Shown here in pieces: positions 18,594 to 61,479 of a stretch of DNA of 64,000 bases. Position 1 is the first letter of the stretch; every line of letters begins with the position of its first letter. A program made the translations under genes and the position numbers. The stretch is from a bacterium. GTDB taxonomy: Bacteria; UBA8248. The stretch lies in NCBI GenBank assembly GCA_965213685.1, contig CBDBZY010000064.1, positions 1,312,001 through 1,376,000 of the forward strand. Direction: 5' to 3'. The notes beneath the pieces are model-generated. The model saw only the letters and a program-made list of their open reading frames with translations, was not told the origin of the DNA and did not search any database.

Positions 18594-18677
18594 GTTGACT
18601 GACAAGCCGTTAAAAGACAGATTACCAAGCGCGTTTAACCCCTTACGCCCTGCGCCTCCGTTGCGCGCGCCTCTTCA

Positions 18678-21816: not shown

Positions 21817-21829
21817 TAACTTGAGACTT

Positions 21830-26434: not shown

Positions 26435-29400
26435 TTAATCTGTAGGAGTCTGTAGAGCATGCGCGCAGTCAGTATAACCCTGCAGAGTAAAGGTAAGTTC
26501 AGGTGAACAGTACATGCAAACTCAGATGTCCATATTCTTCAGAGTTAAATACAGTTCAGACCCCTCTAACCTACTGCTAGTCTGGCAATATTTCTTGATG
26601 TAACACACCAAAAGGTAGACTGAAAGAGGTACTGTATTTCCTCGAATAGACGCCCGGGCGTTTATATCCTTCGCGACTTCGCGGACCCGGCGTTTAAACG
26701 GGGCCGGCGTTTATTTACTTCACGTTTTTCTTGCCCACGCCCACCCACGCTACGTAGCGCACGCCGAGGTCGAAATTCACTTCAGTTCGTGCGACCGTAT
26801 GGCACGTCAAGGGAGTGACAGGCACACTCAATAGCCTTTTACTTGAAGGACACGTCGCAGCATCTCTTCTGTGCCATTGGAGTAGCAGTAGGTGAAGTTC
26901 AGCTATCCCCTTTGAGTCTACCGTGCGGTGCACGTGGACTACGCGCCACGCCCCCAAGCTGGTACCGGGCCTTAATACCCCCGGCGTTTAAACGGGGCCG
27001 GCGTTTATTCGAGGAAATACGGTAGAGTAAGTTACCGAATTTCGGACAACATCCAATGTCGGACACAAACATCAAGGCTTCGGACATGCTAACATGAATA
27101 CAAGCCAAACTTCACTATAGAGTACCTATTAAACGCCTCGCCAGCTTTCCGATTCCAGTCTGTCTGAGAACGAGTTTATTTCTGCACATGCGCAGAAAGC
27201 ACAACAGATCTCGTGCTGTAAAATGGCCTCCTCCAGCAGTGTCCCACTAAGCCGCAGGGTTGCCAGAAGTCGATCTAAAGTGGCTCTTACCGAAGGAAGT
27301 AAGGAAGCGCCCTTGCAGGAGTGCGATGACCTGCCCATGGCCGGGAGCCGGAAAGCCCAGCCAAACCTGGTTGGCCTGAGGAGAGCGTGGACCGAAGAAA
27401 GCATGGAAAGGGCTCTAAAGGAAGTTGGTGAGGGAAAGCTGTCCGTTAGGCGCGCTGCGTTACAGTATGCATTACCCAAATCGACCTTACATGATCGAGT
27501 TACGTGTAAAGTCATCCCTGGTGCTAAGGTCGGAGGGCCACGATACCTTGATGACGAGGAGGAGGAAGAGCTGGTCAACTTTCTGATTGGTGCAGCTAGC
27601 ATCGGCTACTGAAAGACGGTTCAGGAGGTGAAGGCCGTTGTGGGTGCTATTGTGGCCTGCAAATGAGGTTTACAGACTGCAACTGTTAGCCAGGGTTGGT
27701 GGGAGAAATTTAGGTGTCGTAACCCAAAATTCGCTCAGTGCAGAATCTCTTGCTTTTCATCGTTCAGTCTCATTGACCAGAGAGGTGGTCGACACATACT
27801 TTGACCTTCTAGAGGAAACTCTTGAGCAGAACCTCCTATCAAAACCAGCATTAATTTTCAACTGTGATGAGAGTGGCATGCCACTGAATCACAGACCTGG
27901 AAATTGCATTGCCAGGAAAGGACAGAAGCACGTCAATTCCATTGTGTCTGGCAACAAATCCCAGGTCACTGTCCTGGCCTGTGTAAGTGCCATGGGAAAT
28001 TCAATTCCACCATTTGTTATCTTTGATCTAGCAAACCTGAATCAAATGCTAACAGTTGGTGAAATACCCAGAACCATGTATGGCCTTAGTCCGGGGAGTG
28101 GGTGGATTGATTCTCAGCTTTTCCGGGAGTGGTTTGAGCACCACTTTCTCCTGTATGCTCCAGCTGCCCGTCCCCTTCTCCTCTTGCTCGATGGCCACTC
28201 CAGCCACTACCAGCCAGAGGTGGTTCATTTGGCAGCTAGCAAGGGAGTGATCTTGTTTACATTCCCCCCCCCCCCACACCACACATGTTTCACAGCCGCT
28301 TGATGTGACGTGTTTTCACTCCCTTAAGGTGTATTGGGATCAGGAATGCAACAGCTACATGGCAGCTAACCCTGCGAAAGTGGTGACAATATACCAATTT
28401 TCTGAGCTATTTGCTGCTGCATACAAGAGAGCCATGACCAGAGAAAATATCCTTTCTGGATTCAAGAAAGCAGGTGTTTACCCCTTGAACAGACATGTGA
28501 TTGTCATACCAGGGGAGGAACCAGTCAAAAAGGCAACTCCTACGCATGCTCTTGATCTTGCGAGAAGTGGAATAACGTTCTTACCACTATACAGTCCTGC
28601 TACGAAGACCAGACAACCTGAATTTACAGCTGAAGAGGTTGCCAAGTTCACCACTCGTTTTGAGGAAGGCTATGATCTTGACATTGATGAACGCTACCAG
28701 AAGTGATTAGATATTTACAAACCCATGCGACTGTTCGATAAGAGTGAGGATGAGTCTGATGGTGGACAAGAAGTAGAGCCTCTCCAGATTCGCACATCTG
28801 ATAAGGCCTCAGTGCTTCCTCTCACCAGCAAACTGCAAGCAGATGCTGTCAAGAAGGGCTCATCAGTTGAAGCCCCGCCCCCTGTGGTTGAAGAGCCTCC
28901 TAATTCTCTGAACTCCCAGGCCCAACCAGTTGGGAAAGTCCCTGGCAAGTTAACTGAATTCTTGCAGCTTCCTCCCCCCCCCCCCCCCCCTTCTAAAGTA
29001 AGCAAGCCAAAATCTCTGCCTAAAGCTCATGTGCTTACTAGTGAGGAGAATCTGAAGAGGAAGAAAGGCAGAAGAAGGAAGAGATTGAAATGAAGGAATA
29101 GCATCGCCAGGAGAGAGAGGAAAAAAGGCATCTAAAGGAAGCTGAGCGTGGGCATCGAAAGCAGGCACAGGAGAAGGCTAAGCAGAAGCTGCAAGAAGAG
29201 CAAGTAGCACATGACACTGGTGGATCAGAGTGTGCTTTGGGGTCCTGTGAGCATAGGAGGGCAAGAAACGGGGTCCAATGCATTTGCTGTGAACTATGGT
29301 TTCACTGTCTTTGTGTGGATGTATCACGAAAGTTAGCTGAGTCTGAGGGTTATGTGTTTACATGCATAAATTGTACGTATTGAATGCAAAGTGCGATACA

Positions 29401-32400
29401 CTTTCACTTCCGGCATGAGACATATCTGGCTTCCTGTACGTCCGGAAATAACGCATATTTGGCGTTGAGATTGCTCCTAGTAAATGTATATGCGCTGGCT
29501 TAGGTTTGTGGCCTTGAGTTACTCTAACTTTAGGCTATTCGAATCTTGTCTAGCAGCAAACCAGAGTGTTGTGAAAAAACGTACATGCACTGCGTCCGAC
29601 GAAGGAGTACAAAGTCCGAAAAGGGAGACCAACACCAGGTACAATATTTGTAGTTCGCAAAAAACATTGCAGTACCCACTAGCGCTGAGATACATAGAGC
29701 ACAATGTGGAGAGCCTCTGCTATCTGTGCATATGCGAATTGGAATTGAGCATATTTAGGCAATCGACATCTGTGCCATTTTCCAAAAAGTGTCCGAACAT
29801 CAATAACTTACTCTATATAAACACTGGACTTGGGGATTATGTGCTTATGTGTTAGCCTCCCTTCTTAAGCCATAGTGACAATGATCACATGATGGAACAG
29901 AGAACCTAGAATGATAGCCACACATATTCTAGGACCTCATAAAGAACACATGACAACAGGGTATAGCACAAGCAATTATCCCACATTTTGTACATATGCA
30001 GTTTGGCCACTGAAGGCACTGAAACGTCATTCCATTAGCGAGTACTAGTCCAGTGTTTAGAGACTCCCTTAAGGGAGGGCGAGTCATGATTGCATTCTTC
30101 ATCAATTGTGACCGGATCTGCGAAAACCGACCACCTTGTAAAATATGTACATTAGAGATACGGGCGTTTGAACGCGGTCATGTAGTTCTAGACCCAAACT
30201 TTTTTTATTATACCACTGTAATCCTGGGTCCTTTAGCTACATCGTGGTGGAGTTTGACAGTCATCAGCGCTTCCGTTCGAGCGCTATAGCGTGAAACATG
30301 CAGCCTATTCGAGCGCCCTGTTATAGTCTAGTATAGTATACGATGTGCGTTGCTAAGCCAAAGAACATGATCTACAAGCTACGCTAACGACTTGTAGCTT
30401 GCCTAATGGCTATATCGTATGGAGAATCAGCCGATTACAAGTAAACACGAGTACTCGTGTAAAAACTGTAAGTATCGCGGAAGTATACGGACTACGCAAA
30501 ACACGCCCTAGCAACCGCAATAAACGCCCGTTTTCCGGAAAACGCGTGCGTCTAAATTAGCCGACTCTCCGTGCTTCTAAGGACTGTATCTCTAAAACTA
30601 TGCAGGCGATCGCTTCCAAATTTTCACCAGACCTAGACCACACCTCAATGACATCATTCATTGCGCTATCTCGATTTCGATAGCGGGTACAAGGTGGTCG
30701 GTTTTCGCAGATCCGGTCACAATTACTCTACCGTCGCTTTCCCCCTACATTTACCAATGCTAAAATGACAGCAATTCTTTGGTGCGGTTGCAAATTCACT
30801 GGGAAAAAATTCATATTTCCCGCTACCGTTGGATGTGCGGCGCTGAGTCTTGTATTACGTCATTACTAAAATTCAAAGTTGTCCGGACAATATATGGAAA
30901 ACCAACGTGGTACTGACAAAAGATTCCGAGTCCTGTTCTAAATTTAGGGGGAGTATCCAACCAGTGAAGAGGTGGATGCTCACCAAAGGGGAGTGAACTA
31001 GTTTATGCGCAATGGGTTCCTCGAGGCTTGGCTTGCTACTTTACGGCAGAATTTGCTACCGTTTTTCTAAATTCTGCAGCACGAAGAAAACAATTATATA
31101 TGTCTAGAAAGAAAGATTTAGTATGGATTTTTAAAGCAAATGTAGATAGCCAACATGCTTAGTAATCATCCACCGAAGTTTCGTCTCTGCAGCATTAGCC
31201 GTTATTGGCAAATTTTTTTCTATAATTAGCGATATGCATATTGCGTAAATTTTATAATTCTATAAACCGACATATCACGCAAAACTACATTATTTCGCTA
31301 ACAGGCATCATTAGGAGAATACAATAAAACATAAATCAGGCAAAATTATGTCTTAGGGTCGTCCTCCCTTAATTAGCAACTAATGCACAATAATTTGACA
31401 GGTTTAGAAATGTGTACCAATTCAATGCTGTAGTGCAGAGGTGTTCTGTTCTTCTTGTCCTTTAGTGCTACACTTGCTCCCCTTGAAAGAAGTATCTTCA
31501 AAATATTAGGCCTGTTTTCCATTACAGAAATGTGCAGTGGTGTGCATCCACATTGGTCTTTGAGGTTAAGGTCACAGCTATGTATACAAAAAGAGCAAAA
31601 TAATTTCTGACTTCTGACAGAGTTTATTTTTAGCCTCATACCCAGGCGCCTCCCACAAAGCGGTGAGAGGGCCGGTACACACTGTGTGCTCATGCGTGTA
31701 ATATCCCCACTTCTTGGGGGATTTGTAATTATTACTAGAGATACGTATACGCAGTAAATAGCCTCGCGCAGTACACGCAGGAAGCCTGCAGTGGGAGTAG
31801 GCCGTCGTAGGCGCCTCGACTAATCTCCTCGGCGAAAAGACCTTTATAAAGCCGGCCGGAATCACGGAGACGGCCGCTCACATGCAGGAAGCCTGTAGTG
31901 GGAGTAGGCCGTCGTAGGCGCATCGACTTAGGTGGCTCTAGCTAGCTCTAGCTCTGGGCGCGGGCAGTGACATTCCCAAGCCGTTACACTGGGGCACGTG
32001 CACATACGTTTTCGCGTAGCGCACGAAATAATTGCATTCCTAAGCGTGACGGATACATACATACATACATACATACATACATACATACATACATACATAC
32101 ATACATACATACATACATACATACATACATACATACATACATACAAACTACTTGCGAGATGCGATGCAGAATTAGTTGCCTTGCTAAGGCGCTCGGCAAT
32201 TAATGGATATTTACCGTAGATTTTGGTACGTATACTAACCGTGTACATTCGTGTCACGAAGGTGATTGTCTGAAGTGTTGTCTTCGAATGATGCGCAGTT
32301 TGCCACAGCTGTGTCGTACGCTCTATAGAAGGTTGGGAAAGCGGGAATTGTGCTCAAGCCTGAGCAGCTACAAGCTATACGTATATGATGGGAGAGATGT

Positions 32401-34784
32401 CTTTCTGTGGCTACCAACAGGCTCTGGTAAATCCATCTGCTATGATGTTCAGCCAGGCCCCTCCCACAAACCGCTTTGTGGTAGGGGCCAGGGTGCGTGG
32501 CTAGTGGGTTAGTATAATTCTTCGCATGCATCCCACGTGGGCAAGGTAAGTGTATGATATTTTTTACGGAGAAAAAAAAACGGAATATGTTGCGCATGCG
32601 CAAACAGCGTGTAGCAGGCCTTCTCCCCGATTTGTGGGAGGGGCCTGGGTATGAGACTAATTAATTTTGTACTCCCAGGTAGTGTGCTGTAACCTTACAA
32701 GTGACAGGTCTTGCATATTCTTTATGCATGTACAACCATAACCAACTTCATCACATATACACAGCAGCAAAACTTCATAGAGAGCTCACACCTAGATAGG
32801 CTTTCAGATAGACTTGAATGTGCATCAGGTCATAGCTTTGTTACAAGTATTATCCTTTTGGCCTAACAATCATTGTTTTGCTAATTGGCATTGTCACAAG
32901 GTGATGGATAGGCAAATAATTGTTGACGCAGGCAGAGAAAGAAAAGAATGGAAGACAAACCACATCCTGCCAGAGCACCAAACCAGGACCCAGTGACTGC
33001 AAGTTCGGTGCACCAAGTGCCAATTAAGCCACTACCTCGGAAAAGTTCATCTCCCCATTCTTTTTTATGTGCAGCCAGTGGTCGTTGACTATTCAGTCAA
33101 CTTCCCACTGACGATCCACTGGCAGCACACAAGGAGATGAACTTTTGTCTGGGATAGTGGGCTTGATACTTGGTGCACTGGGCCCAGGCTCTGTGCTCTG
33201 GATGGGAGGTTGTGTTTCCAATCTTCCTTTCTCCATCTGTGTCAACCAGAATTACTATTTTACCTTTGGAATGATGAAAGGTAGCTCACAATCTCTGGTG
33301 GACCGTCCTTGCATGCAAGGTGCAAGGCACTTGATCCTGCAGTATCCACTAAATTGATGTCATTGGGCTGTAAGTATACAAAGTGTGAAGAATTAAACAT
33401 GAATACATAGAAAATGTTCTTCTACATTTGTTTCCACAATAGCCTGAACACATGGGAGGCTGTTACATGTCACAGCATAATGGAGGGCAGTCCTTCCTTG
33501 CTTGTCACTTATACCCATGTCTGCCTGTGTTAAAGAAGTACTCTTCACTAACATGAGTTACAAAACACTTAACAAACCTTTGCCATCAGTAATCTTTTAG
33601 CATGTCCTGGAAGTTTTGCTAACACAGAAATATGAAGAGGTGTTCTGTACATATTGTCTCTAGTGTTGATACCAAGAAGATCTGATCCATATTTGCAGAG
33701 GTATTCCAGACACCTGTAACCAATTATTGGACTTTAGAGGTTTCTTACATGTGTAGTAGACCCCAAATGAGCATACATGTATGTACATACAAGTCACAGA
33801 CCTGCTAAGCTCACTCAGGTCTGGATGAGTTAGCATGCAGTGCTGTCAAGTAGTAACAAGCTACTTACAACTACCACCTTATAATGGTAGACTCAACTGT
33901 CTTGAACACAGCATGTATTATCATACACCAACCATAATTTGATGCTAGTCTACACACAAGGTCAGTGCAGGCCATTAGTTGTAAAGAGTGTAAATTTGAC
34001 GCTGCAGATTGTCCACTTCCAACATACACTTGTGTTTTTTTTTGATTGAATAAACCTGGTGCCTAAAAAGGCATAGATTACTTGTAATTTTGACTTCCAG
34101 CAGACAAGTGAAATGCAGTGCTTCCATCAGCATCCACAAAATGTGTCTGTGCTCCATTTCTACAAATAATAGCAACAATAGCCATTGTGCACTGAACATT
34201 GTTCCGAAACTTACTTAATGAGTACTTTGACAATATCTTCATATTCATACTTAAGAGCCAGAAGAAGAGAGGTACACCCTGAGGAGTCAGCTGCATTCAC
34301 ATCTGCTCCATAGCGAATTAACAATAGGCAGCACTATGAGAAAAACCATAACTAATGTAAAATCAGAGAGATAGTGCTATCAGTTGTGACAAGAATATGA
34401 TACTTCTATACTTGACCATGATCATTAGTACAAGTGTTTCTTTCAAAGCCAGCCTAGACTATACACAGTATCTAAGACATACCTTTGTCTGTTTTCCAAT
34501 GACAGCATACATGAGGGGAGTACGCCCCATAGCATCAGTGATATTAATGTTTTTCTGTGTTATCCATGTCTTTACTTGAGTTCGTTCACCTACAGCAAAG
34601 GCGTTAAACAAATGGAAGTATGCACAAGATGATTACAGCAATCCAACAACCATAAAGTGCAGCAATGTGGAATTCTGTTGGGTTGCTTGCTGTAAGACCA
34701 AAGTGATCTAACAAATCACCACTGATGCCAAGAGACACTTCTGATGTGGACAGTGTTGCTCTGGAGTCTACTGTCCATGTACTG
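26435..34784 (-). CDS. Ankyrin-repeat protein (ANKRD55/inversin-like, ~7 repeats); 5' end unresolved
   Basis: Phase-consistent GT-AG exons: 34784-34651, 34589-34483 (DAMGRTPLMYAV), 34333-34215, 34159-34082, 33713-33578, 33524-33426 (GRTALHYAV), 33367-33264, 31577-31418 (GCTPLHISV..RTPLHYSIEL), 26479-26435 (GYTDCAHALQTPTD*). Confidence 0.88.
26632..27022. mobile_element. pogo/Tigger-like MITE
   Basis: TA|CTGTATTTCCTCGAATAGACGCC ... GGCGTTTATTCGAGGAAATACGG|TA. Confidence 0.85.
27025..29813 (+). mobile_element. pogo-family DNA transposon, near full length
   Basis: TA|GAGTAAGTTA..TTCGGACA ... TGTCCGAA..TAACTTACTC|TA enclosing the transposase. Confidence 0.9.
27223..29382 (+). pseudogene. pogo transposase: HTH_psq, CENP-B HTH, DDE_1 and C-terminal PHD finger; disrupted
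   Basis: WTEESMERAL..SVRRAALQYALPKSTLHDR; IFNCDESG, LLLLDGHSSH and QPLDV (DDD triad); C-terminal VQCICCELWFHCLCV..FTCINC. Several stops and frameshifts. Confidence 0.9.
30073..31368 (+). mobile_element. Kolobok-like non-autonomous element (TTAA TSD) carrying a nested MITE
   Basis: TTAA|GGGAGGGCGA ... TCGTCCTCCC|TTAA; a second, inverted copy is at 41784-42362. Confidence 0.8.
30108..30720. mobile_element. MITE with AATT TSD (Sola-like); partial copy at ~25155-25265
   Basis: AATT|GTGACCGGATCTGCGAAAACCGACCACCTTGTA ... TACAAGGTGGTCGGTTTTCGCAGATCCGGTCAC|AATT. The empty site is visible in the 42 kb copy of the host element. Confidence 0.9.
31631..32659 (+). mobile_element. AcademH-like non-autonomous element with a RecQ helicase fragment
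   Basis: TAGCCTCATACCCAGG ... CCTGGGTATGAGACTA TIRs; degenerate 9-bp flanks GTTTATTTT/ATTAATTTT; internal LKPEQ..YDGRDVFLWLPTGSGKSICY (~32355-32445). Confidence 0.75.
31735..32203 (+). mobile_element. HINE/DINE (Helentron-associated)-like repeat with (TACA)n, nested in the Academ element
   Basis: Internal ~48-bp direct repeat, (TACA)n at ~32054-32145, and a 3' stem-loop ttgcc..ggcaa followed by TTAA. A similar 3' hairpin ends a repeat at ~48700-48736. Confidence 0.5.
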
Positions 34785-36343
34785 CTGAAAACAAGGATGG
34801 TGCACAATTGGCAGCAATGTAACTAAACGTGTAACTACATATACAGTTTGGACAACTAAAAATTCTAGTTAGAATATGTACAGAGTATTCCACACACACA
34901 TGCAAGCAGTTTCAAGTTGGTCAGGTCCAGAAGTGGGTGTGGCAATTATTAACTATATACAGGCCCGAAAGTGAGAGTGGCAATTACTAATTGTTATGAT
35001 TGTTATGGTGTTAGTGGCTTGCTGGCTGTAGGGGTTGTACCAGGCATCAATGACACGCACTGTAGATATTCAACCTTGTGTCAGTGAGGCTAAGTATGCA
35101 CGCACAGTCACAAAGCACACACATATACATGCACACGTTTCATTAGAACCACTTAGTAGCTTCTTATTGTCTCTTGATGACCAAAAAGCTGCCATCCAAT
35201 GCCTAAGTGCCACCATACCCAGCTGGCAAAGGTATGAGTTTGTCTGCTAGCTATATATTCGTGCAAACTACCCAGTTGAAGTTGAAGGGTAGCTACTGCA
35301 GCCACGTTTTGTAGTGCAAATAGCACTGAAGGCTATACAGCAGGCTAACCCAACTCTTGCACCCAGAGGAGGATGGACACGATTTAATGTCACGTGACAC
35401 AATGCGCAATTCTAATTGCACTCCTATGCCGCGGTAGGCCTTAGGGTGAACCCAACTCGCATAGCTAAAGCTTTATTTGTGAACAACAGGGTGTCAGGAA
35501 GGTAGGAGTACCCATCTTTGCTTTGAACAGATTGAGAAGAGGTTTCTGGGAGTCTTGATTGGTTAACAAGAAACCATGGCTGGCTTCAGTCACTATACAC
35601 GCCATTCAACGCAGAATACTAGAAAAGAGACATAGGGGTTGGGTTCAGATGAGTAGATATTTGATATGTACTCAATGAGGGCTTTCAAATGACATGTCTA
35701 TCTACATGATTGCAGCGGGATAAGGTTCCTTTCCAGGCATCATACTAGATTTTATACGGAGATCTCTATAAGGAAACGTTGTATGTGAGCGTTGGCACGT
35801 GCACCGCAGTTGTGTCATATGAAGCATCACCTTTGCAGCTAGTGGTGGCACTTCGACGTTGAATGGCAGTTTGCAGACAATAAAAAGCTAGCTTGTCAGA
35901 CTAATGAAACGTGTACATGTGTGGGAGTGTTTTTCGTATAAACTAATGCGAACAGCTTGCCTACGGAGAGTATTCGCAACGCAACACGTAATGCCATGAC
36001 GTAAGAGTGAGACCCTGTAATTTCGGATGCGGCTTTTACTCTGCACCTTGCAAGAACTAGTCTCAGCCTCAGACCCTTTCTAATGAGGCCGAGACTAGCA
36101 ACAAAGGTAGCAAAGCCTACTAACACGCGCTTGCTCAGCTTGCACAGCTTGCACAGCTAGTAGCACAGGCAGCACAAGGCAAAGACAGCGGTTTGAGACT
36201 TTTACCGGGGTACAAACCAGTTACACCACGGCAGTCTGGGCTGTATGGGATCACCTCGTGCAGGAAGTACTTAGAGTCCTCGTGCCCTAATTACTTCCTG
36301 CCCTTGGTGTATATCCCATATAGCCCGGACTACCATCGTATAA

Positions 36344-36635
36344 CCAGGAGCCCATAAGCACCACAAAGCGGCGCCAAGGAGCGTCCAACTGCTGAGAACA
36401 GTGATGTCCTAAACGGGAACTTTGACCTCTCTGTCATTGACCATATACAGCAGTAGGAGAACCCACACTACTGTTACACCTGTAGAAGTTGTACACTTTT
36501 GTAGCTTCTGTAGCAGCTGTTACGTAACAAATAAGGCCATAACCTGGCTGCTGTGGTTAGTACATTGCTGTTCCATGCCATCATGCGCTGTTGGATGCTC
36601 CTTGGCACCGCTTCGCAGCGCTTATGGGCTCCTGG
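36344..36635. mobile_element. MITE; minimal hairpin version at ~56261-56318
   Basis: CCAGGAGCCCATAAGC..GCCAAGGAGCGTCCAAC ... GTTGGATGCTCCTTGGC..GCTTATGGGCTCCTGG. Confidence 0.8.
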
Positions 36636-36703
36636 TATAACTAGTACTTGTATCCTGGTAGCACACGAGAACAATGGAAAATTGCGTGGTGTAGAGCCTA
36701 AGT

Positions 36704-36834
36704 AGTACTAGGTGTGAAAAGTAGTGGGCAATATGACTGCGGGTGTGAAAAGTAGCGGGCAATATGACGGTGGGTGTGAAAAGTAGCGGGCAATATGACT
36801 GTCATATTGCCCGCTACTTTTCACACCTAGTACT
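36704..36834. repeat. Three tandem 31-bp units followed by one inverted unit
   Basis: (ggtgtgaaaagtagcgggcaatatgac+4 nt) x3, then gtcatattgcccgctacttttcacacc. Confidence 0.9.
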
Positions 36835-37211
36835 CTAGCCCTAGCCTTGAAGCATATACCTGCGGAAGGTACAGGCCTGAAGGCACTATGTAGTAGAAAC
36901 GGTGACATCAAAGCTGGCTCGAGTCGACAGCTAGGCCTGCGGTGAGGGCAAGCGAGCGGTACGAAAAACGACCCAGACTTTCGCTTACCGAAGTAGTGCA
37001 CAAGGTCTGAGAGGCCCTGGCACTTCTCCACTCACTAAAACAGCTTACAGCCCACTGGGTGCTTTTCACGGTACAAAAACTAAGCCATGTCTTGGTTGGA
37101 AAGCGGCTGCTCCATGCTCCCAGCCTCTCAGACTTTGTGAACTTCTTCCTTGAGCGAAAGTCTGTGCCCTTTTCCGTACCGCTCCCTCGCCCTTGCCGCA
37201 GGCCCCGACTT

Positions 37212-37234
37212 TGACGTCACTGTTTCCTAGCAAC
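37212..37234. promoter_or_regulatory. Candidate promoter: CRE (TGACGTCA) next to an RFX X-box-like motif (GTTTCCTAGCAAC)
   Basis: Adjacent motifs in a CpG-rich patch, upstream (minus strand) of candidate 5' exons at ~36860-37150. Confidence 0.45.
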
Positions 37235-37265
37235 AATCGGGTATCCAGGATACAAGCTACTAGTA

Positions 37266-37526
37266 CACAGCCAAAAATAATTGGGCTCGATTCGATACCG
37301 ACTGCCGTAAGGTATCGAATCGAGGACAATGAGGAGCTCGAATCGAGCACGTAAGGCCCTTACGGCCTCGAACCGACACTGGGGTTACATGTCGATTCGA
37401 GCTGTAAGGCAGACCCCATACAAAAAATACAATGGGACTGCCCCAAATGAACGTACCGATACTTGTCATTCCGTACCGTATCGAGCACGTTTACGTCCTC
37501 GAATCGGGATTCAATTTTTGGCCGTG
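37266..37526. mobile_element. MITE with CAC termini
   Basis: TA|CACAGCCAAAAAT ... ATTTTTGGCCGTG|TA. Confidence 0.7.
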
Positions 37527-38529
37527 TAGCACGCCTACAGGCGGGCCATTCACATATGCACTCCATAATATTGCATAATCCGTTATGCAATATTACTTCG
37601 CCCTATAGCAGGTACTTTTTGGGGGGTAAAATTTTTGTAGTTTTCATGGCTGAGAGGCGAACCACAAATATTTACCCATAAAACAGTACTGCATAGTACA
37701 GGGGTGTGGTTTAGTATACCGTGACCACTGGCCAAAAGTTCACTGCTCACGAAAATTTTTCCCTGCAAAAAATACCTGCTATACAGTATGTAAAAGAGCC
37801 CTGGTAGGCGTGCTACTACTATAACTGAAACAGGTTTAGAGTGATCTACTAACAGAGCTAACATGAGAATCAATTTTGTGGGGGTATGTCTAAACAGTCC
37901 TTATCAGAAACAAAACAGTATTCTGTGTTTACAAAAGACAAAAAGTTAGTTCATCTTCAGTACACTAGTACCAGCACAGACTACTCTTCATCATGGGATT
38001 TTCATTCCTGCCAATGATCATACATATTTGTCCCTTAGCTACACAGATAAGCAGGTGTTCTGGTATAATGTCCTATACACATACCTTGATTGGTGAACAT
38101 TTGCAGCAAGTAGGGTGTTGTGCCCAGGGAATGCGCCAAGAGATTTTGTTGCCATCAGTCTACATCAGTTTGAGTAAATTTGTGAGTTCATAATGGCAGT
38201 ACTTCTAAAAGTACTATGTATATGTATCACAGGTTGGTTCATAATTAATCTATGACACTTTCTGAACCTAGCAAACAGTAGTATAAACAATAAAGCACTA
38301 AGTACTCAATGTACTTATTGAAGATTTTGAGAAATATATGTTCATTACAGCTCAACTTTAATGTTCTCTTACTGTGTTGTCAAACCCTACAGCAAACCTA
38401 TTGTTCAATGTTAACAAAAGACAAAAGGGGGATGTTTTGCAGCAACCCCAAAATCTATACACACAGTAGTACCTACATCTGTTGCTTAATTCCTGCAATA
38501 GTTGGAACACTACTGAGCCTACAGTATTA

Positions 38530-41000: not shown

Positions 41001-41199
41001 AGTACTATAATCTGCCGGGTCGTACTTGGAAGCCACTGATACTTCCCAAGGAGCTAACGTCTATATAGGTTTCGAGGGGCTCAGCCCCTTTTCCACAAAC
41101 ACACTAACGTACATGCATACTAAAGGTGTTGGTGCTGAACTTAGAGAGAAACAACCTCCAGCCTGTATGATAGTGTGGTACAACAAAAGGCACACAAAC

Positions 41200-44176: not shown

Positions 44177-44209
44177 CTGTAGAATGTGGTTGTATGAATA
44201 TTTATTACA

Positions 44210-48157: not shown

Positions 48158-48253
48158 TAGCCTTGTTACTCAGACCCTTTCCTCGAACGGATATAATGAT
48201 CACGTCACACATGATGACTATCTGTTCAAGGAAAGGGTCTGGGGACGAGATTA
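48158..48253. mobile_element. Academ-like mini hairpin (related short TAG..CTA elements at ~36059, ~47580-47650, ~51297-51382, ~61953)
   Basis: TAGCCTTGTTACTCAGACCCTTTCCTCGAAC ... GTTCAAGGAAAGGGTCTGGGGACGAGATTA. Confidence 0.55.
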
Positions 48254-49419: not shown

Positions 49420-51427
49420 CAAGGCCGTAGGAGCTGCAGCGGCCAGGGTGGCCATGGCCGCTACACTTTTTTGCAGCTCATTAAATATTCATTACCACTT
49501 TTGGTGGCATGGGCGTGGCCACGAGTCTGCGAACAGTAAACTTAACTATTGCGCTATCAGTGCTCAGGCTAATATCTCCCACAATTGGTCATCATCCTCA
49601 CCAACCGCACGAATTCAAGTTCCCCAAAAGAGAATTCAGTCAGCAAACGAAAGTGAAGGTTCGTGGTTCAACAATGGAGTTGGCTGAAACTGGCTCAAAA
49701 TCCACCTGAAAATTTAAAACCTTTTTGCATGCCCCCAGACCCCCCTAGTAAGTGTGTGCGAAGCACGCACATTATACAGTGCTCCACGCAAAGAGACCGA
49801 AAACCACATTTTTGAAGTTTATGTAAGTTTACTGAATCATGCTATAGGCTAGTGGGACAAACTATATATCAAAATAATCCCCCTTCATCAGGGAGTAATT
49901 GAGTGTAATGGCATTCTGTCATGTGACAGTCACGTGAACAAAATGGCGGTGAAAGCAACACGATTTTGAAAAATGTTAGGCTGATTATTTGTGCAAATGT
50001 ACGAGTTAAGATCTGAAAATGCAACATAACACTTCTACCCTAAGGGGTTATATGTGGACCCACTATCATGAAGCAAATCCCAACTGTTTCCCTACAGTGA
50101 AAGAAAACGATGGTTTTTGAGGGCCTCTTCCGTTAGGCTCAGGAAATGCGCAGGTTTTGTAGCTAAGCTTTGAAACTTTGCATGCAACGTCCTCAGTCCT
50201 CATATTTTCATCACATACTCACCTCCGGTAGTACCCTCAAAGCTTATCTCTGCAAGCGAGCCTAACCTACCAGAGCATCACATTTCGGCGGCCATCTTGC
50301 CCATTCGGGACGTGTACACTTTTCAATGCAATCCTGGTGACGTTTCATTATTGCACGTGCTGGTTACGAGGTTGATATTGCGTGTGCGGTTGTGTCGACG
50401 AGCAGAGGATGGCCTAGTGCCAGTGAGCTTCCCTCGCTTCTTTTGTGGCACAGGTCAGAGGCGTCATGTTCTATGGGCTGCAGTTGTATGAGGCTAGGCA
50501 GGGAGAGAATGTTGCGCTGGTTAGGAGGCCTAACAACCGTATGACAGCAACTGTTTGGAAGTGAGACTGGTGCGCAGTTGAATGTCCTTTGTGCTGGGTC
50601 ACCTGGCAGTGGAAGTTGCTGTGCACCTGTCTCCGTTGCTGTGTGATGCTTCTCCATGTGAGGTGGAATGTTACACATTCTGGAGATCATGACCTTCTGT
50701 GACATCACGTTCACCACTTTGAAATCTACACACTTAATGTAGGGTCTCAAAAATGGCCGCCAAAAGTAGCATTTTGGTACAGAAGGCTTGCTTGCGGAGA
50801 TACACTTCAAGGGTACTATTGGAGGTGAGTATGCGATGAAAATATGAGGACTTAGGATGTTCCATGTGAAGTTTCGAAGCTTAACTACAAAACCTGCGCA
50901 TTTCCTGAGCCTAACGGAAGAGGCCCTCAAAAACCATCGTTTCTTTCACTGTAGGAAAATAGTTGGGATAGTGGGTCCACACATAGCCCCTTGGGGTAGA
51001 AGTGTTATGTTGCATTTTCAGATCTTACCTCGTACATTTGCACAAATAATCCGCCTAACTTATTTTTCAAAATCGTGTTGCTTTCACTGCCATTTTGTTC
51101 ACATGATTGTCACATGACAGAATGCCATTACACTCAATTACTCCCTGATGATGGGGGATTATTTTGATATATAGTTTGTCCCACTAGCATATAGCATGAT
51201 TCAGTAAATTCACAAAAACTTCAAAAATGTGGTTTTCGGTCTCTTTGCGTGGAGCACTGTACACAATCATAATATTATTTGAATATGCCGCTAATGTAGC
51301 CTCGTTCCCCGGTTCGATTTTGATTCTTGTGTAGTCAAACGGCATGCACATGCCCTAGAGGGCAGAGTGTGGGAATGAGGCTGTCGCTAATGGCCTCTCC
51401 ACTTTTTACTTGCTTCCTACGGGCCTG
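49420..51427. mobile_element. MITE-like element (CAGGCCCGTAGG-type ends) nested in the ISL2EU derivative
   Basis: CAAGGCCGTAGGAG ... CTTCCTACGGGCCTG; TSD not clear. Confidence 0.55.
49777..51259. mobile_element. Long-TIR (~520 bp) element with TA TSD; fragments at ~22690-22865, ~52010-52772, ~53130-53820
   Basis: TA|CAGTGCTCCACGCAAAGAGACCGAAAACCAC ... GTGGTTTTCGGTCTCTTTGCGTGGAGCACTG|TA; arms ~49777-50297 and ~50750-51259. Confidence 0.9.
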
Positions 51428-54400
51428 ATGAAGGCAGATCTACTAAAGTACAAGAGTTTCTTCTTCTCTTCTCATTGTAGAGCTCTCTCTTAACGACCTT
51501 CAGCTATCACTGTTGTACCCTCAGGTGCTCCGCCTAGCCGCTTCGATGGTGCCCAGTTCACAGGGTTGTTAGTAATAGTATCATACAAGGAGCTAGGTTT
51601 CCCTATTGAGATAAACATGCATATTTATCTGTAGGACATGCACTTGTATTTTACTTACCTAATACAAATTACGAGAGCATACCCTTTTGCGGCCCTAAGT
51701 CCTGCCTGTGAATTAGATATTTCGCCGCTGCTGGCTCAGCTTACAAGTTCCTTTGCCCTGATTGTGTACGACTGCAGGCAGACAGTACCCTTTATCCCGG
51801 TTGGACCTGCTCCCGCAGCTAACGACGGCCCAAAGTTAACCATATTTACAGCCACTCCCACTCGTGTAGCAACCGGATTGTCCTCCAAGATGGCCGACAC
51901 GTATTACGTAATTCATTGATGACGTCAATGCAAGGAGTCTATAACAAACCTCTAGGTATTTTGAAAACTATTATACTTGTTTTTAAGAGCACGGCTACTC
52001 CGAATAGCAAACTTTGCTGGCAACATCTAAAGTCCTCACATTTTCATCGCATGCTTACTTACTTTAGCGGTCTAGAAGTATATCCCCGTGAACGCGCCTT
52101 CTCCGCGAGAGCGCTACCTATCGGCGGCCATTTTCTAGACGTTACATTGGCTCCATACATTTCATTGTAGTGAATGCAACGTCACGGAACGTATTGTTAT
52201 AACCTTTGACCTCGGGTTTTCCGCTTTCTCCTCCGTTTTTTACGTCATGTAACGTCATCGGCGTAACGTTGTGGCGCAGTAAACGTCATCCATGGGCAAG
52301 ATGGCCGCCGAAAAGTAGCGCTCTCACGAAGATGGCGCGCTCGCGGGGATTATTGTGCGATGAAAATATAAGGACTTAAGATGTTGCCTGCAAAGTTTGG
52401 AAGCTTAACTACATTAACTGTGCATTTCCCGAGCCTAATGGCAAAGGTCCTCAAAAACCACTGTTGTCTTCTGCTGTGCAATAGTTGAGGTTTGCTTCGT
52501 GAAAGTGAGTTCACATATACCCCCCAGTATGAGTGTTTTTCTGCATTTTCAGATCTTAACTCGTACGCGTGCACAAATAATCAGCCTAACTTTTCACTGC
52601 CATTTTGTTCACGTGACTGTCACATGACGGAGTGATATTATAATCAGATTATTCCCTGATGATGGAAGATTAACTTGGTATAGAGTGTGACCCACTAGCA
52701 TATACCCTGAGAGAGTGAAATCACAAAAACTTCAAAAGTGTGGTTTTCGGTTTCTTCATGTGGAGCACTGTACTGTAACTACTTATGCAATGAAAATACA
52801 AGATTTATTGCACAAGGCCCAAGGGTGCAGCCCAAGGGCCGAGTGCAATAGAATCTGATACATCCTGAGTGGGCGTGTCATAATTAGCTTGTTGCAACTG
52901 CCTGCATTTCCATTTTAAAGCGGTTTGAACTGGATGAAGGCAGTTGAAACCATTTCCTCAGGTGGTGCTTCTTTGGCTTTGGCCAGTTATTGCACAGGTC
53001 ATGCCAGTTATTGCACGCTTGAAGCCAGTACTAGGCGCCAGAAAGTGCACTAGTCGATTTAACATCCTGGCGGCACCTTTGATGTACACACGCAGTATGC
53101 AAACTTAATCAACTTAATCTGATCATCAGGATACATTCTATCATGTGACAATCACGTGAACAAAACGACGGTGAGGTATATAAAAACTTTAGCAAATGTA
53201 CGAGTTAATATTAGAAAATGCAATAAAACACTTATAGCCTCGGGAGCTATATGTGAACTCACTTTCACGAAGCAAATCTCAACTATTTCTGCACGACAAA
53301 AGAAAATTTAAGACAGTGATATCTGAGGACCTCTGCCTTTAGGAGAAGGAAATGCACAGTTCTTGTAGTTAACCTCCAGACTTCACATGCAGCATCTTAA
53401 GTTCTTGCATTTTCATTGCATAAGTAGTCACAGTAGCAGTCCAGAAGTATATCCCCGCAAGTGTGCCATCTTCTTGAGAGCACTACTTTCCGGTGGCCAT
53501 ATTGCCCATGGATGACGTTTACTGCTCCACAATGTAATACTGATGATGTTACATGACGTAAAAAATGAAGGAAAACCCTAGAGTATGTTCCGTGACATTC
53601 ACCGCAATGAAACAAATGTATCATCATGAAAAGGGCTGCTGAAAGGTAGTGCTCTCACAGAGAAAGCATGTTCACGGGGATAGACCACTACAATAAGTAA
53701 GCATGCAATGAAAATATAAGGACTTTAGATGTTGCGTGCAAAGTTTGGAGGCAAGTGCAAACTTCAAACTGCATTTCTGCATAAAGTGTGGTTTTCTGAC
53801 TCTGTGTGGAGCACTGCAATAGCATACAAAGGACATCTACATGTACTTTCACAGATACACAATGACACATACAGAAAAATAATTGTACACTGTGCCATAT
53901 ACTCGCATCATCAGAGTACAGTATAATAGGCAGCACTTTTAGTGATATTAACATACTCACATGTATATCCATGCTCCACATAGTGACATTTCTGAATACT
54001 TGGCAATGAAAACATTTTCAGCACCCTTGAAATTGTACACACTCCATAGTGTTACACAGGTATATATACATGTACTGGTAAGAGGATTCATAGTAGGGAA
54101 CTGTACATCATTTCCAAAGCAATCAAGTTTTAGACCAAATTCTCATTTGTCCTTTTAACTTAGAGTGAATTATTGCAAAACTCAAGGTCAGGAAATAATT
54201 GTAAGTATAGCCATATGTACATGTATGTACATATGTACATAGCTACATGTAGATCAATACCCACTCATGTTGCAGCGTACTATACTAGTGTAGTTCTTTG
54301 TAAGTATACTGTATGTTACAATGAGAACAAAATGAAAGAGTGGATGGGTTTTCGAACTCACCATGGCATCTAAAACTAACCTGTTCATCAATAGTAGGAA

Positions 54401-55808: not shown

Positions 55809-58800
55809 TGATAGTGTAGTGATTCCGCACTATTAATCCTTCTAGGAACACTAATTCTTTGTGGGAATGCTGAGGCCTTGGGCACTACAAAATGTGATTT
55901 GGAACACCTTTGCTGAGACACCAATACACACATCATACAAACCAACTAACATTGTGCTGAAGGCATTGATGTTCTTCTGTGTCCACTTGGTGCTGTGAGA
56001 GTAGTGTATTTTAGTCTGTATAATAGTAACACATGTTGACATACCAGTTTACCTTCTTCCTTAGCTGATCTTTCATCCTACACAAAAGTGAAGTTCACCC
56101 TTACACAAAGTACACATTTTACACTTTTACTAATCACCTTTCCACCATCAGGTTGTAAACCATTTCTCAGCTTGGCAAGATACTCCTTTTGTCTCTGAAT
56201 CTCCATCTTCTCATGTTCTAATCTGTTTTTAAGGCAATAGGTACATGTATTAGGATGAACAGGAGCCCATAAGCACCGCAAAGTGGTGCCACTTTGCGGT
56301 GCTTATGGGCTCCCGGTATGAACAACTGTGTTCCTGTGATAGTTTGTGAGTATCATTGTAAATCATGTTCTTCTTGTTGCTACCACTGATAATAGAAGGT
56401 GGGCCTAAACTAAAAAGCACATGCTAGCTGAGCTTTAAATACATGTTACTAGACACTACGTAGCACAGATATTAGGCACCCAAATGTCCCAGCATAGGTA
56501 CATCTAAACAGATGCGCAAAAACAACCACTTCACACAAAGTTTGAACATTCTCTACAAACTCTGCCAATATGGTATGCAGAGTGATTGACACTAGTATCA
56601 CATAAACATGAGTACCCATTATTAAGTTATGCAGAGGTGTACGGTACAGAATTTGCTAACCTGCCATGGCAACCACAATAAAGTTTTGCAGAGACTAGTT
56701 TTTCCTTTCACACACATACACATAACATAACATAACACTGCTGGAAACAGATAATAAGCATAAGCAAAGAGGTTTGGTGTATGCCTTCACACTGGCATAC
56801 AAGTAAGGTATAATGCATTTACAATGTTATTTCACTCTCAGTCATTGTGGTTTGCCGAGTACCTTGGTACAATTGGATAGTTGATAGTACTTGGTCGTCT
56901 GAGTGTTTGAGTAAGGTGTTAGGCCAAAAACACCTCAGAAGGATGTTGACTAGACCTAAGGATCCAGTTGCTCTGAACTTGTGAGCTAGTATCATGCACA
57001 GGATACTTTGTGAGTATTGTACAAAGGCTTAAAAAGGACAGTCTGGAAGATTTCTGTCATGCAGATTGAAGGAGCACAAATGTGCAGTATGAATTGGTGA
57101 CATGAACACCTCAGCCATAGCTGAACATGCATGGCAGGCAAAACAACACATCAATTGTTTATCAGCAGAGGTGTTGGACTCAGAACGATTTTTGTCTTCA
57201 CAATTATTGGAATCATGGTATACTAATTATACATCCACTGATAGCCCAATCCTGAGATTGTGGCTTGCTACCAATGAAGTATCACTCTCTCATCAAGAAT
57301 ATGTAGCTCTAAAATTATCAGTAAGTACTTTTTGGTGTTCTCTCCATTTCAGACGTCTGAATAGACACAAAAACACTGGAGAGTACTATGTTCATTACTA
57401 CAGCTAGCAAACAAGAGGAACTATCTACACATTACCTAGCCACACAGGCTTATACTAGATCTGAATCATTATCTGTTTCCAGCAGTGTTCGTCAAGGTTG
57501 TGTGCTGTCTCATGTATTGTGCTGTTTGCTGTGTATTTGCCCATTTGGATGTAGACCTGATCATAACAGTGTTGAGTATTGCTGGGGAGTTATTGCCAAG
57601 CGCCATACCATGAGGGATCCAATTTCGCAGCACTATTTGTATGTGTGTATGCTTGTAAGTATGCTTTTCTGCACATGTGCCTGTATGTAATACTGAAATT
57701 AATGTGTTGCAGGAAACTAAGTAACGAAAGTCATCATTTCCATAGTACATACCTCTTTTTTTCTAACTCCAGTTTTGCAAGTTTCACTTCATACTCTGTT
57801 GCAGTTTCTTTTTTGAGACGTTCTTGTTCCTAAACAATGACGTGTGAAGTTAAAAGTACATGATCAAATGTAGTGACATACTCACCTTCAGCAGAGCTTG
57901 TTTGAATTCTTCTGAGTCAGCTATTTTCTGATCACCACCATGCAGGAGCTGTGCATTATTACATAGTCAGTACAGGCTTTTTCTATTTGTACAATGAATC
58001 ATTCTCACATATGGACATGTATGTGCAAGTTACCATGTTCTCTAGCTGTTGTATTCTAGACAATAGTTTTTCCTTGTCTGCCTTTGCTTCAGTGACAATC
58101 TTCTCTTGAATCTCCAGCTTTGACTTCACTTCATCCTACATTTCACAAAAGCAAAATACACCTGATAGTGCAAATGATGTACATTCAGTGGCCTAGAGGG
58201 AATCTGCAGACTGAAAATACTTGCACACAGTCAATTGTACTAATAATCACTAGAGATCACATACCCCAATAGTCTGGCACACCTACATCTACAAGTACAG
58301 TCATGTGCAGCTCTGTTTCAGGTTTGTACTCAGACCCAGCAAGGGGTAGGGGGTAGTTGTACACATGCAACAAGTTTAGACCTACATGTACCCTATAGTG
58401 TGTGATATTGTAATGGTCATCCTTTTGCTAACTAGGAAAAGAAACATGGAATGGAACACTTGCTTGCTGTAACATGTGTGTACAAACATTGATTGTACCA
58501 TAAATAACCTGCTACTATCAAAGATATGCATACAATGCACACATATATGTATACTAGGCTGACCCTTTTAAGGGCAATTATGCAAACACAATCCTGGTGC
58601 CACAACAAAATGGGGCTAGTTCTCTGGTGTACGTACCTATGTATGTAAATAACGGTGTACCTACATATGTACATAATGGGCTCGGGGGATAAAAATCAAA
58701 CAAAATACAGGACCTTTTCCCTCTGAGCTTCTAGTCTCTCTCTTTGAAGTTGCTGGAGTTCAGGATTTGAATCTTTAGTCCTAAAGGTCATGAGTAAAAT

Positions 58801-61479
58801 CCACTATATTGGCATACATGTATAACATTTAGAGGAAGGTACACAGCTACCTTTCTTGAAGTTGGTGCTTGAGTTTTTTAATCTCTGCCTGGTAAGAGGA
58901 AAGGAGAGCTTTTTGAGACATATCTTTGTTCACTAGAGCTGTGTTCTTGATGTTTTTTGCTCTGGATAACCCGAACACACCATATGTCAATGCATTGTAG
59001 CATGAGAGTCGACAATACAACTTTACCGTTTTGCAAATTTCAAAGTGTTAAGACTTTCATTGTAGCAAACAGAAGCTGGAGTAACTGTAGCAATAAGTGT
59101 GGTTTTGCAATTTCCCCCAAGACAATCTTGTAGTAGACGTGTCAACTTCGAGTCACGATATGGTACATGCTTCACACTTGGAGTGGTAAGGGCTGTAACC
59201 ACCTAGTGTGTGATAGTAGGAAAACTTACTACAGCCCTACTAAATGTCTGTTCTGGATTCGCAACTAGTGTATGCTACATACACTAAATATACAACAAGG
59301 TGTACCTTAGACAAGGTGTGGAGTGACACATTGATATTTTTGGTTTCTTCCTGCTGCTTACTTTGAGCATCCATGTCAAGTCTACAGTACAGTAGTGGAA
59401 TTTACATGCATGGTGCACATTGCATGTACATGCAGTTGCCACTCAGATCACTCATGACATGATATCAACGGTTAAAACAAGATGGGAAATTGGGTATTTC
59501 TGTATTGGTGGTTCACATATACACACAGTAAAATACTTTTAAAAATATAGATGCCTGGAACTCAAAAAAACCCTCCCAGTAAGGTGCACATATACATGTA
59601 CATGCAGTCTAGGGTACCATAAATACAATGTACATGTAGATTAAATGAAGGGTGGATGAAACAATCAAAGCAGCAATCCACCCTCCATATATGTATATAC
59701 CTATCAACATACCACTCCCTCATAAGTAGCTGGAAAATGTAACAACACAAACATCATATCACTTGCTGAGAGTGTGATTCATAGAAACCATGCATACATG
59801 AATGTATTGACTGATCTACGTACAACTTAGCCAACTGAAGCCCACCTCTCTGATCCTGCAAGATCAACAAGTCTCAGTTTTCCAATGGTAGTCACACTTC
59901 CTCCAGCACCATCATGTTCTGCATGCTCCACAATAATCGTGAATACAGCATGGCTACGGCTACTCTCCTAAAGAACAAGAGTACATAGGTAAATGATGCA
60001 GTACAATGTGTTGCTATTATCACTGAAGAATTTGCAAAACTAATAGGTTTGCATATACGTACCTTGTTCATTTTAGTCATAGCTGTAATCCGTAGATGAG
60101 CACCAATCTGTAACAGTCTCATTACTTCAGCTGTATTGCGCACAACATGTTCAGAAAGACTCTCCACGTACACCCCTCCGACACCATCTTCCCTCATTTT
60201 CAGACTCTCTTTGCGAGGATCCTGAAACAACCATATACATACATGTATGAATCCAATGTCAATTACAAGAGACTTCCTATATGTAGAGGCTTTACCAACA
60301 AATCTGATATCTTCTCATTGTAGATTTCTACGAAGGATGTACGTACAAGAAACTGCTCACTTTTATTTGCACATGTTCGTATGTCTAGTCACAGTCAAGG
60401 ATATAAGTTATAAACAGTAGCACAACAGTACAGATGAAAATGTAGATAGGATATGAGAAAATATCAGCTCTGTAGCTCTGGGAATAATTCCTCTTGTGTC
60501 ATCATCACCTCCTTCAATTGTGTAGGTTTTTCCAGAACCTAAACCATGAAAACATACAGTGATGACATGTGTTGTACTGTTTCTACATAAATAGTTCACT
60601 GATCAGGGGTGTAGCTAGGGGGGAAGGGGTTTGGATGAACCCCTTTTTTGCTTTAGTTCTGGTGACTCTGGTAGCTTGGATGGTGTGGCTGAGATGACAT
60701 CATGTAGTTTAGCCCAACATGCGAGTAATAGCTAGTTGCTAAAATGGTTGGCCAGTGTAAAGTCTAGAGACACGTTGAAGCAGAAGCTGTTTCTAGAAAT
60801 TTAAACTATACAGATTGCCCTATGAAGCAAACCTACAGTCCTGGCTACACCCCAGCTCATATGTACGTAAAGACAAATCCCAAAGTTCATGAAATGCTGG
60901 CGCATTACACTTGCTAACATCGGATAACAGGTGTATGAAGGTACTTGAGGACAGATCCTTTAAAAACACACCAGTTTGGCCACTGGCAATGATACTGCCA
61001 TTGTATCCCTCCAGTACAGATGTCACTACATCATGGGCACAGCATTTGAAGACATCCTCTTGGGTATTACTACAGAAGTATAGCAAGTCTTTTTCACTTT
61101 AGTACAATCAAGAGTGCATAATATACACTCTTGGTACAATGAACACAAAATTTACCTTGAACCAAGAGCTAGATCAAACGAGAAATTTTGGACAACGCTT
61201 TGGTCATTAGGAACTAACTGTCCCAAGTCCTCAATGCCAATTCTGGAAGACGGTCTCCTTTGTAGATCAGGTTTTTTGATAATTACTGTCTTATGTGCCG
61301 CGTCCACCTCTACACACTATTAGTGCAAGAGTACGAAGTCTTTGGATCAAGGACAGCACCGTAGCTAGATTGCTTTCTCCACTCACCTGCTCAGATGCCG
61401 CGGTCACCTCTCTGGGAATCAACGGTCTAACTCTTACAGCTACAATGAAATTGTCTCGTCTTTTTCCAGCGGTGTCCAT
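55809..61479 (-). CDS. Kinesin-2/KIF3-like N-terminal motor protein with coiled-coil stalk; 3' end unresolved
   Basis: 18 phase-consistent exons: 61479-61387, 61316-61156, 61069-60972, 60538-60455, 60384-60296, 60221-60063, 59967-59846, 59381-59306, 59202-59027, 58961-58851, 58780-58714, 58135-58034, 57948-57886, 57829-57753, 56222-56138, 56077-56053, 55992-55951, 55884-55809. Motifs: [44 protein letters not shown], neck AKNIKN. Confidence 0.93.
56890..57225 (+). pseudogene. Penelope-like GIY-YIG fragment in a kinesin intron
   Basis: [39 protein letters not shown]. Confidence 0.75.
60385..60454 (-). other. U12-type (minor spliceosome) intron, 70 nt, apparently AT-AG
   Basis: 5' splice site ATATCCT; branch site TCCTTGAC at 60401-60394; splicing restores ..IFSH-IRTC.. 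in frame. Confidence 0.8.
60604..60855. mobile_element. hAT-like MITE in kinesin intron 3
   Basis: CAGGGGTGTAGCTAG ... CTGGCTACACCCCAG. Confidence 0.6.

Follow-up and report, generated by a model that had tools for sequence, protein, structure and literature searches.

Kinesins usually connect to their cargo through separate adaptor subunits or through family-specific tails. The relatives of the gene considered here include two computer-predicted, uncharacterised sponge proteins, LOC135334732 isoform X2 of Halichondria panicea (1099 residues, annotated 'uncharacterized protein'; P0010 below) and LOC134192702 of Corticium candelabrum (1162 residues; P0018), in which a kinesin motor, a stalk, a linker, a DEP domain, a second linker and ankyrin repeats follow one another in a single chain. 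The same domain order, with a motor of the same clade, was found in a stretch of 64,000 nucleotides (nt), hereafter the window, comprising positions 1312001-1376000 of contig C64 (CBDBZY010000064.1) of genome bin G000 (GCA_965213685.1), which is filed as a prokaryote genome. Judged from sequence comparison, the kinesin, DEP and ankyrin blocks of the window very probably constitute one minus-strand gene of a sponge-like animal, spanning 31373-61479 in window coordinates. Demosponges are the source of the nearest named proteins.

Collinearity with single-chain sponge proteins

When P0010 was aligned to the window with tblastn, its residues 14-529, 625-712 and 771-1083 fell on the kinesin, DEP and ankyrin blocks respectively, in order and on one strand. 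P0014, an open reading frame (ORF) of 1034 residues, and P0018 were also collinear over all three blocks. The spliced kinesin model (551 residues) exhibited 63% identity to P0010 residues 16-551, rising to 70% over 384 residues for the spliced motor, and the spliced DEP-ankyrin model (469 residues) was 53% identical to residues 625-1083 (E 2e-159). Residues 9-1012 of the full model matched P0010 residues 16-1083 in a single alignment of 55% identity and 1097 bits; identity was 54% to P0014 and 40% to P0018. Residue by residue, the spliced DEP region could be aligned with its counterpart in P0010, a DEP domain that scores 40.5 bits against PF00610. This collinearity, together with the matches of the spliced models to P0010, indicates that the three blocks are orthologous to one sponge gene in which they are fused. 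That three unrelated genes came to lie side by side on the same strand by chance is scarcely conceivable, as in several species one protein matches all three blocks collinearly.

The architecture is already present in public protein sets, where it is uncharacterised, and the locus is a further member. A motor exon query of 59 residues yielded, among the 120 matches listed, four proteins with PF00225, PF00610 and ankyrin families (P0010, P0014, P0018 and the 619-residue P0016) and two with PF00225 and ankyrin families (P0017 and P0022); all six are among the 20 best matches. The name of P0022 marks it as a complete Trinity ORF, and P0014 sits on a transcript-like contig of 3282 nt which, since it encodes 1034 residues, has no room for introns. 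Word-index searches retrieved only P0010 and P0014 with the P0010 DEP/linker region, and only the window's own ORF and one ORF fragment of 75% identity with a variable motor exon. A profile of six fused proteins was compared with 1.84 billion cluster representatives, giving a list dominated by giant ankyrin proteins. Twenty of 150 profile matches, selected for their length and a small number of matched stretches, were scanned with Pfam, of which nine carried Kinesin, DEP and Ank at E <= 1e-5 and 11 were kinesin-only. Clusters at 50% identity holding all three domains number at least 13, with named members from two sponge classes. No description of a kinesin with DEP and ankyrin domains was found in those portions of the literature that were available. 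An earlier note on this DNA, which proposed a single kinesin-coiled-coil-DEP-ankyrin gene, had suggested searching for the architecture and aligning the blocks to sponge proteins; both approaches lead to the single chains P0010, P0014 and P0018. The note's remark that the architecture was unfamiliar from characterised kinesins holds in so far as these proteins are uncharacterised, but the architecture is not absent from databases.

On the minus strand the kinesin block of 17 exons runs from 61479 to 55809, the DEP block of three from 44176 to 43688 and the ankyrin block of eight from 34784 to 31373; exon ends and phases were read from the sequence and then checked by translation (Table 1). Every junction is GT-AG, and 29 exons are free of frameshifts and internal stops; the count becomes 30 with a doubtful exon at 43623-43504, so that the predicted protein has 987 or 1027 residues. 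The full model with the inferred micro-exon described below amounts to 3084 nt in one open frame of 1027 codons, with its sole stop at the end. All minus-strand ORFs of at least 35 residues between 31039 and 61583 were scanned with Pfam. Kinesin (PF00225) was detected on six of them between 61098 and 59026, covering profile positions 52-327 (best E 3.1e-22, at 59026-59202), and ankyrin families on six between 34632 and 31376 (best Ank_2, E 5.3e-11). DEP (PF00610) was weakly detected on ORFs 43906-44022 (E 1.3e-3, 19.0 bits) and 43687-43902 (E 6.2e-3, 16.9 bits), each falling below the cutoff of 32.7 bits when taken alone. The scan of these ORFs yielded nothing else credible between the blocks and no other tail domain.

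Much of what the earlier note had described is borne out by Pfam, sequence and translation, namely three ordered coding blocks on the minus strand, a kinesin frame still open at 55809, DEP exons with neither a start exon nor a stop, and an ankyrin block with a terminal stop. The DEP exons hold one internal ATG, at codon 10 of DEP exon 1. The note had also read the phases correctly, 43688 and 43504 ending in phase 2 and 34784 starting in phase 2. Its gene range of 26435-61479 requires correction to 31373-61479 (~30 kb), as no exon was found below 31373. Pfam ankyrin matches were found on 0 of 117 minus-strand ORFs in 14076-31158, and tblastn with the orthologues gave no match below 31388; the gene is consequently taken to end at 31373.

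Table 1. Exons and large introns of the proposed gene, in window coordinates. PWM, position weight matrix.
Feature	Position	Strand	Basis and remarks
Exon 1	61387..61479	-	ATG at 61479, phase 0 to 0; N-terminus aligns to P0010 and P0014 starts
Exon 2, kinesin motor	61156..61316	-	AG/GT sites, frame; tblastn P0010 residues 39-86
Exon 3, motor, P-loop start	60972..61069	-	Pfam Kinesin on ORF 60823-61098; frame
Exon 4, motor, P-loop GSGKT	60432..60538	-	Pfam Kinesin E 4.7e-8 on 60411-60602; frame
Exon 5, motor	60296..60352	-	Pfam Kinesin on 60266-60388; frame
Exon 6, motor	60063..60221	-	Pfam Kinesin; 69% identity, P0010 residues 184-235
Exon 7, motor, switch II	59846..59967	-	Pfam Kinesin E 1e-11; 88% identity to P0010
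Exon 8, motor	59306..59381	-	Frame; within tblastn match to P0010 residues 277-398
Exon 9, motor end	59027..59202	-	Pfam Kinesin E 3.1e-22; 86% identity, P0010 residues 303-361
Exon 10, neck and stalk start	58851..58961	-	Frame; aligns to orthologue necks
Exon 11, stalk	58714..58780	-	Frame; tblastn
Exon 12, stalk	58034..58135	-	Frame; tblastn
Exon 13, stalk	57886..57948	-	Frame; tblastn
Exon 14, stalk	57753..57829	-	Frame; gap-free alignment to P0010 stalk
Exon 15, stalk end	56138..56222	-	Ends phase 0; 65% identity, P0010 residues 499-529
Exon 16, linker 1 start, 25 nt	56053..56077	-	Ends phase 1; alternative donor 56045 would end phase 0
Exon 17, linker 1	55809..55884	-	Basic RRxS motif; ends phase 2; donor PWM score within training range
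Inferred micro-exon, 19 nt	54362..54380	-	Phase 2 to 0; splice-site scores, open frame
Intron, 10,185 nt	44177..54361	-	72% repeated DNA; no Pfam domain on its ORFs
DEP exon 1	44102..44176	-	Phase 0 to 0; 64% identity, P0010 residues 625-649
DEP exon 2	43924..44019	-	Pfam DEP E 1.3e-3; aligns to P0010 DEP domain
DEP exon 3	43688..43824	-	Pfam DEP E 6.2e-3; ends phase 2; donor score 8.2
Doubtful exon, 120 nt	43504..43623	-	Phase 2 to 2; frame open with or without it
Intron, 8,903 nt if doubtful exon skipped	34785..43687	-	70% repeated DNA
Ankyrin exon 1, linker 2 end and first repeat	34651..34784	-	Phase 2 start, acceptor 9.6; 57% identity, P0010 residues 771-817
Ankyrin exon 2	34483..34589	-	Pfam Ank_2; tblastn; frame
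Ankyrin exon 3	34215..34333	-	Pfam Ank E 1.5e-6; frame
Ankyrin exon 4	34082..34159	-	tblastn P0010 residues 886-918; frame
Ankyrin exon 5	33578..33713	-	Pfam Ank_2; tblastn; frame
Ankyrin exon 6	33426..33524	-	Pfam Ank families E 8.3e-6; frame
Ankyrin exon 7	33264..33367	-	Pfam Ank families; frame
Ankyrin exon 8, last	31373..31577	-	TAA 31375-31373; Ank_2 E 5.3e-11; aligns within ~15 residues of P0010/P0014 C-termini

Junctions between the blocks and repeat-filled introns

In the alignment of the fused proteins exon 17 is read in the frame of a basic RRxS motif, being entered in phase 1 from donor 56053 and left in phase 2 at 55809. The motif occurs twice in P0010, once in P0014 and in exon 17 of the window, and donor 56053 alone places exon 17 in this orthologue-supported frame. 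The third frame of the exon (55884-55809) holds a TAG, and read-through past 55809 meets a TGA stop at 55807-55805. A direct join from 55809 to 44176 is out of frame because the former ends in phase 2 and the latter starts in phase 0. The single gene envisaged by the earlier note is supported by orthology and by an open spliced frame, but not by this junction. Direct joins from 56138 or 56045 to 44176 are in frame and were judged less likely, since exon 17 with its orthologue-conserved motif would be skipped.

Splice-site matrices were derived from 27 donor and 27 acceptor sites of the locus and used to score all AG...GT candidates in the 11.6-kb gap between the kinesin and DEP blocks. One candidate only, at 54380-54362, combined an acceptor score of at least 8 and a donor score of at least 6 (11.0 and 8.3 respectively) with an open frame entered in phase 2 and left in phase 0; an equally good candidate arose in one of 300 gaps simulated with a first-order Markov model. 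The candidate lies in non-repeated DNA and ends in the residue pair L-D, which is also found just before the DEP region in P0010 and P0014. A 19-nt micro-exon is accordingly predicted from these scores to link exon 17 to DEP exon 1. A further candidate of 42 nt, lying at 55702-55661 and passing from phase 2 to phase 2 (acceptor 4.9, donor 8.9), was frame-compatible but unsupported.

Sequence variation was compared over 36300-56299 using DNA contigs of four runs (X1-X4). The non-repeated region 53965-54979, around the predicted micro-exon, exhibited 0-1 differences per contig of 590-1050 nt in the four runs, as against 15 differences in 1720 nt at the DEP exons in run X2, which gives a weak hint of constraint.

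Similarity searches of the gap did not disclose further linker exons. A motif search for a linker exon gave no match, local alignment of four orthologue linkers with 308 pieces of ORF peaked at scores of 33-36, which were not above those obtained inside repeats, and ranking by composition yielded nothing convincing. Within the family, linker 1 may be as short as ~25 residues or exceed 400, and this wide variation in length would explain why its exons were missed by homology. After the RRxS motif it extends for ~9 residues in the window model as compared with 38 in P0010.

At the second link, a strong donor (43688, score 8.2) is in phase with a strong acceptor (34784, score 9.6). The additional exon at 43623-43504 is doubtful: its frame is open and with it linker 2 matches the orthologues in length, but its acceptor scores 0.1 and it has no similarity to orthologue linkers. 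All four of the differences seen in it in run X2 are nonsynonymous, and DEP exons 1-3 hold none of the 15 differences of the 1720-nt contig of that run.

The large introns are repeat-filled. Other copies within the 8-Mb assembly account for 72% of the intron at 54361-44177 and 70% of that at 43687-34785, compared with 1% of the kinesin block. Depth of k-mers in the four DNA runs reached 10^4-10^5 and more in the two large introns as against ~6-115 in single-copy parts. Pfam detected a transposase or reverse-transcriptase domain on none of 50 plus-strand ORFs in the large introns, nor on their minus-strand ORFs. The earlier note had regarded the gaps as mostly transposon DNA; the data show repeats, and it is a reasonable inference that these are non-autonomous transposons. 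In the proposed gene the two large gaps are introns swollen by repeated DNA. Interspersed repeats at 38968-42969, 44971-45637 and 48306-48972 reached a depth of up to ~6.7e5, and the 8-Mb assembly holds up to 210 copies. They gave no match to a protein domain and are probably very abundant non-autonomous elements.

Such introns have a bearing on annotation, as repeat-swollen introns of 9-10 kb together with a 19-nt micro-exon are likely to make gene callers split or truncate the gene. A Geodia barretti protein of 507 residues, P0013, annotated as 'Kinesin-like protein KIF3A', may exemplify such truncation.

Motor lineage, tail modules and rival readings

A maximum-likelihood tree was constructed from 34 motor domains, P0016 and P0006 having been dropped with fewer than 250 aligned residues. 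One clade of 19 rows, with a support of 99/97, comprised the window together with all 14 fused and four kinesin-only rows. P0013 lies next to the window within this clade and ends approximately where the window stalk ends; it may be a model truncated at a long intron rather than a true KIF3A. Rows named OSM-3 (P0088) and KIF17 (P0094) grouped apart, in a clade that belongs neither to the fused clade nor to its sister, in a tree that held no KIF3A/B or other-family references. Among solved structures, P0010 matched OSM-3 best at 257.9 bits, closely followed by KIF13B (251.5), KIF5A (239.4), KIF18A (237.6) and KIF3B (235.3).

The designation kinesin-2 given in the earlier note is unsupported as written, the motor clade standing apart from the OSM-3/KIF17 rows, and on sequence grounds kinesin-2 would describe a resemblance rather than an established membership. 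The resemblance consists of an N-terminal motor followed by a stalk and of the OSM-3 structure match; the neck may also resemble that of kinesin-2, and relatives bear the names 'KIF3A' or 'kinesin family protein 3/17' in three sources. The tail differs: it is made up of a DEP domain and ankyrin repeats and is not of the KAP-binding or KIF17 type.

The DEP region of P0010 matched DEPDC5 best, with E 1.6e-6 for the two-copy chain and 0.067 for single-copy chains, followed by Iml1 (0.0045) and DEPTOR (0.039). This likeness is weak and extends to an H-P-x-(S/T)-G motif that precedes the domain. PREX1 (0.21) and RGS7 (0.48) ranked lower, and no Dishevelled chain was among the matches to this region. 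The membrane and G-protein-coupled receptor role to which the earlier note had appealed, and which is characteristic of DEP domains in Dishevelled and RGS proteins, is therefore not simply transferable. The ankyrin part, beside which the earlier note had set inversin-type ciliary proteins, gave generic matches only, to Pfam ankyrin families and to Ankyrin-1/2 among solved structures; its neighbours in a protein atlas were generic ankyrin clusters with scores below 0.8, which constitute no evidence.

The proposed protein of ~990-1030 residues would consist of an N-terminal motor with its neck, a stalk ~170 residues long that resembles a coiled coil, linker 1, which is short and disordered and bears the basic RRxS motif, the DEP domain, linker 2 and ~8 ankyrin repeats. 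The N-terminal position of the motor would imply plus-end-directed movement along microtubules, and the stalk would imply dimerisation. The DEP and ankyrin tail may take the place of an adaptor subunit, binding cargo or a membrane or signalling partner directly, and the RRxS motif is a candidate phospho-switch, either of binding or of an autoinhibited state. It is tentatively suggested, with somewhat less than even confidence, that kinesin-DEP-ankyrin proteins represent a distinct, old kinesin lineage in which an in-built DEPDC5-like DEP and ankyrin module for cargo or signalling replaces the adaptor subunit and is regulated via the linker RRxS. A DEP and ankyrin scaffold fused to the stalk would provide a compact alternative to adaptor subunits, and the fused design seems to have been retained across deep sponge lineages.

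Fission of the fused gene is the alternative that survives best, and is considered unlikely. The kinesin would in that event end at the TGA at 55807-55805 after ~552 residues, and the DEP-ankyrin part would form an independent gene, driven by a promoter within the repeats of the gap and beginning at the ATG of DEP exon 1 or at an undetected upstream exon. Several points favour fission or weigh against a single fused gene. The stop lies directly behind the exon 17 donor, so that a kinesin-only product is possible if this donor is unused, and ~10 kb of repeats separate the blocks. The fused clade contains four kinesin-only rows (P0013, P0012, P0197 and P0235), among them the annotated protein of Geodia barretti. 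The micro-exon shares two residues, L-D, with the two nearest orthologues, and the matrices that predict it come from sites of the same locus. Bridging of the blocks is supported by orthology, not RNA, a search for sequencing runs of this DNA having listed no RNA run, and the function outlined above is predicted from domain order.

Conversely, DEP exon 1 is preceded by a good acceptor, is in frame and has no start codon at its head, and initiation at the internal ATG would cut a DEP N-terminal helix region conserved with P0010 and P0014. An in-frame path exists through the strong micro-exon, matched in the single simulation noted above. The kinesin-only rows are all short (462-664 residues), P0012 fills its contig of 1503 nt, and these four may be truncated models. 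All 14 fused proteins and the window share one motor clade, which indicates that fusion is the ancestral state.

A second alternative, regarded as very improbable, is that the window holds a decaying copy of the fused gene, disrupted by repeat insertions, with one or more linker exons lost and no full-length protein made. Residues 552-624 of P0010 (~73 residues of linker) indeed have no detectable counterpart in the 11.6-kb gap save exon 17 and the micro-exon, and the doubtful exon at 43623-43504 has only nonsynonymous differences. Decay is difficult to reconcile with 29 of 29 exons lacking frameshifts and internal stops, with GT-AG sites at all junctions, and with the absence from DEP exons 1-3 of any of the 15 run X2 differences; a short linker is normal within the range of the family. 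Taken together, these data favour a single, intact kinesin-DEP-ankyrin gene.

Probable host DNA and neighbouring features

The bin containing the window amounts to 7.97 Mb, compared with 2.9-4.6 Mb for 22 genomes of the same genus. Its contigs fall into two sets, with a G+C content of ~0.65 and of 0.44-0.53, the second of which includes the 1.64-Mb contig of the window. Contigs C64, C18, C41 and C2 have low G+C contents of 0.44-0.47, and C3, C31, C44 and others of ~0.65. The presence of spliced genes of animal type indicates that the window is eukaryotic DNA binned with a bacterium, and megabases of sponge-like host DNA seem to have been binned together with the symbiont; a 'prokaryote' genome bin would then hold animal DNA on the megabase scale. 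Forty further genomes treated as relatives of the bin, all of them prokaryotic, lack the gene. A search of genome contigs with protein P0002 and one of metagenome contigs with a DEP-exon ORF gave no match.

Minor features were observed within and beyond the gene. A long tetranucleotide microsatellite of ATGT/ACAT units occupies 32043-32147 in the last ankyrin intron. Downstream of the gene, and inside the range first assigned to it, the plus strand carries a remnant of a pogo/Tigger-like DNA transposon at 27133-29383, with matches to HTH_psq (E 2.1e-9) and DDE_1 (E 7.8e-11 and 2.3e-4); the remnant is frameshifted, since these domains are spread over at least three ORF pieces. Further downstream, a minus-strand ORF at 16010-16342 exhibited a sub-threshold match to PLAC8 (E 8.6e-6, 27.1 bits against a cutoff of 34.4) and is possibly an exon of a neighbouring gene.

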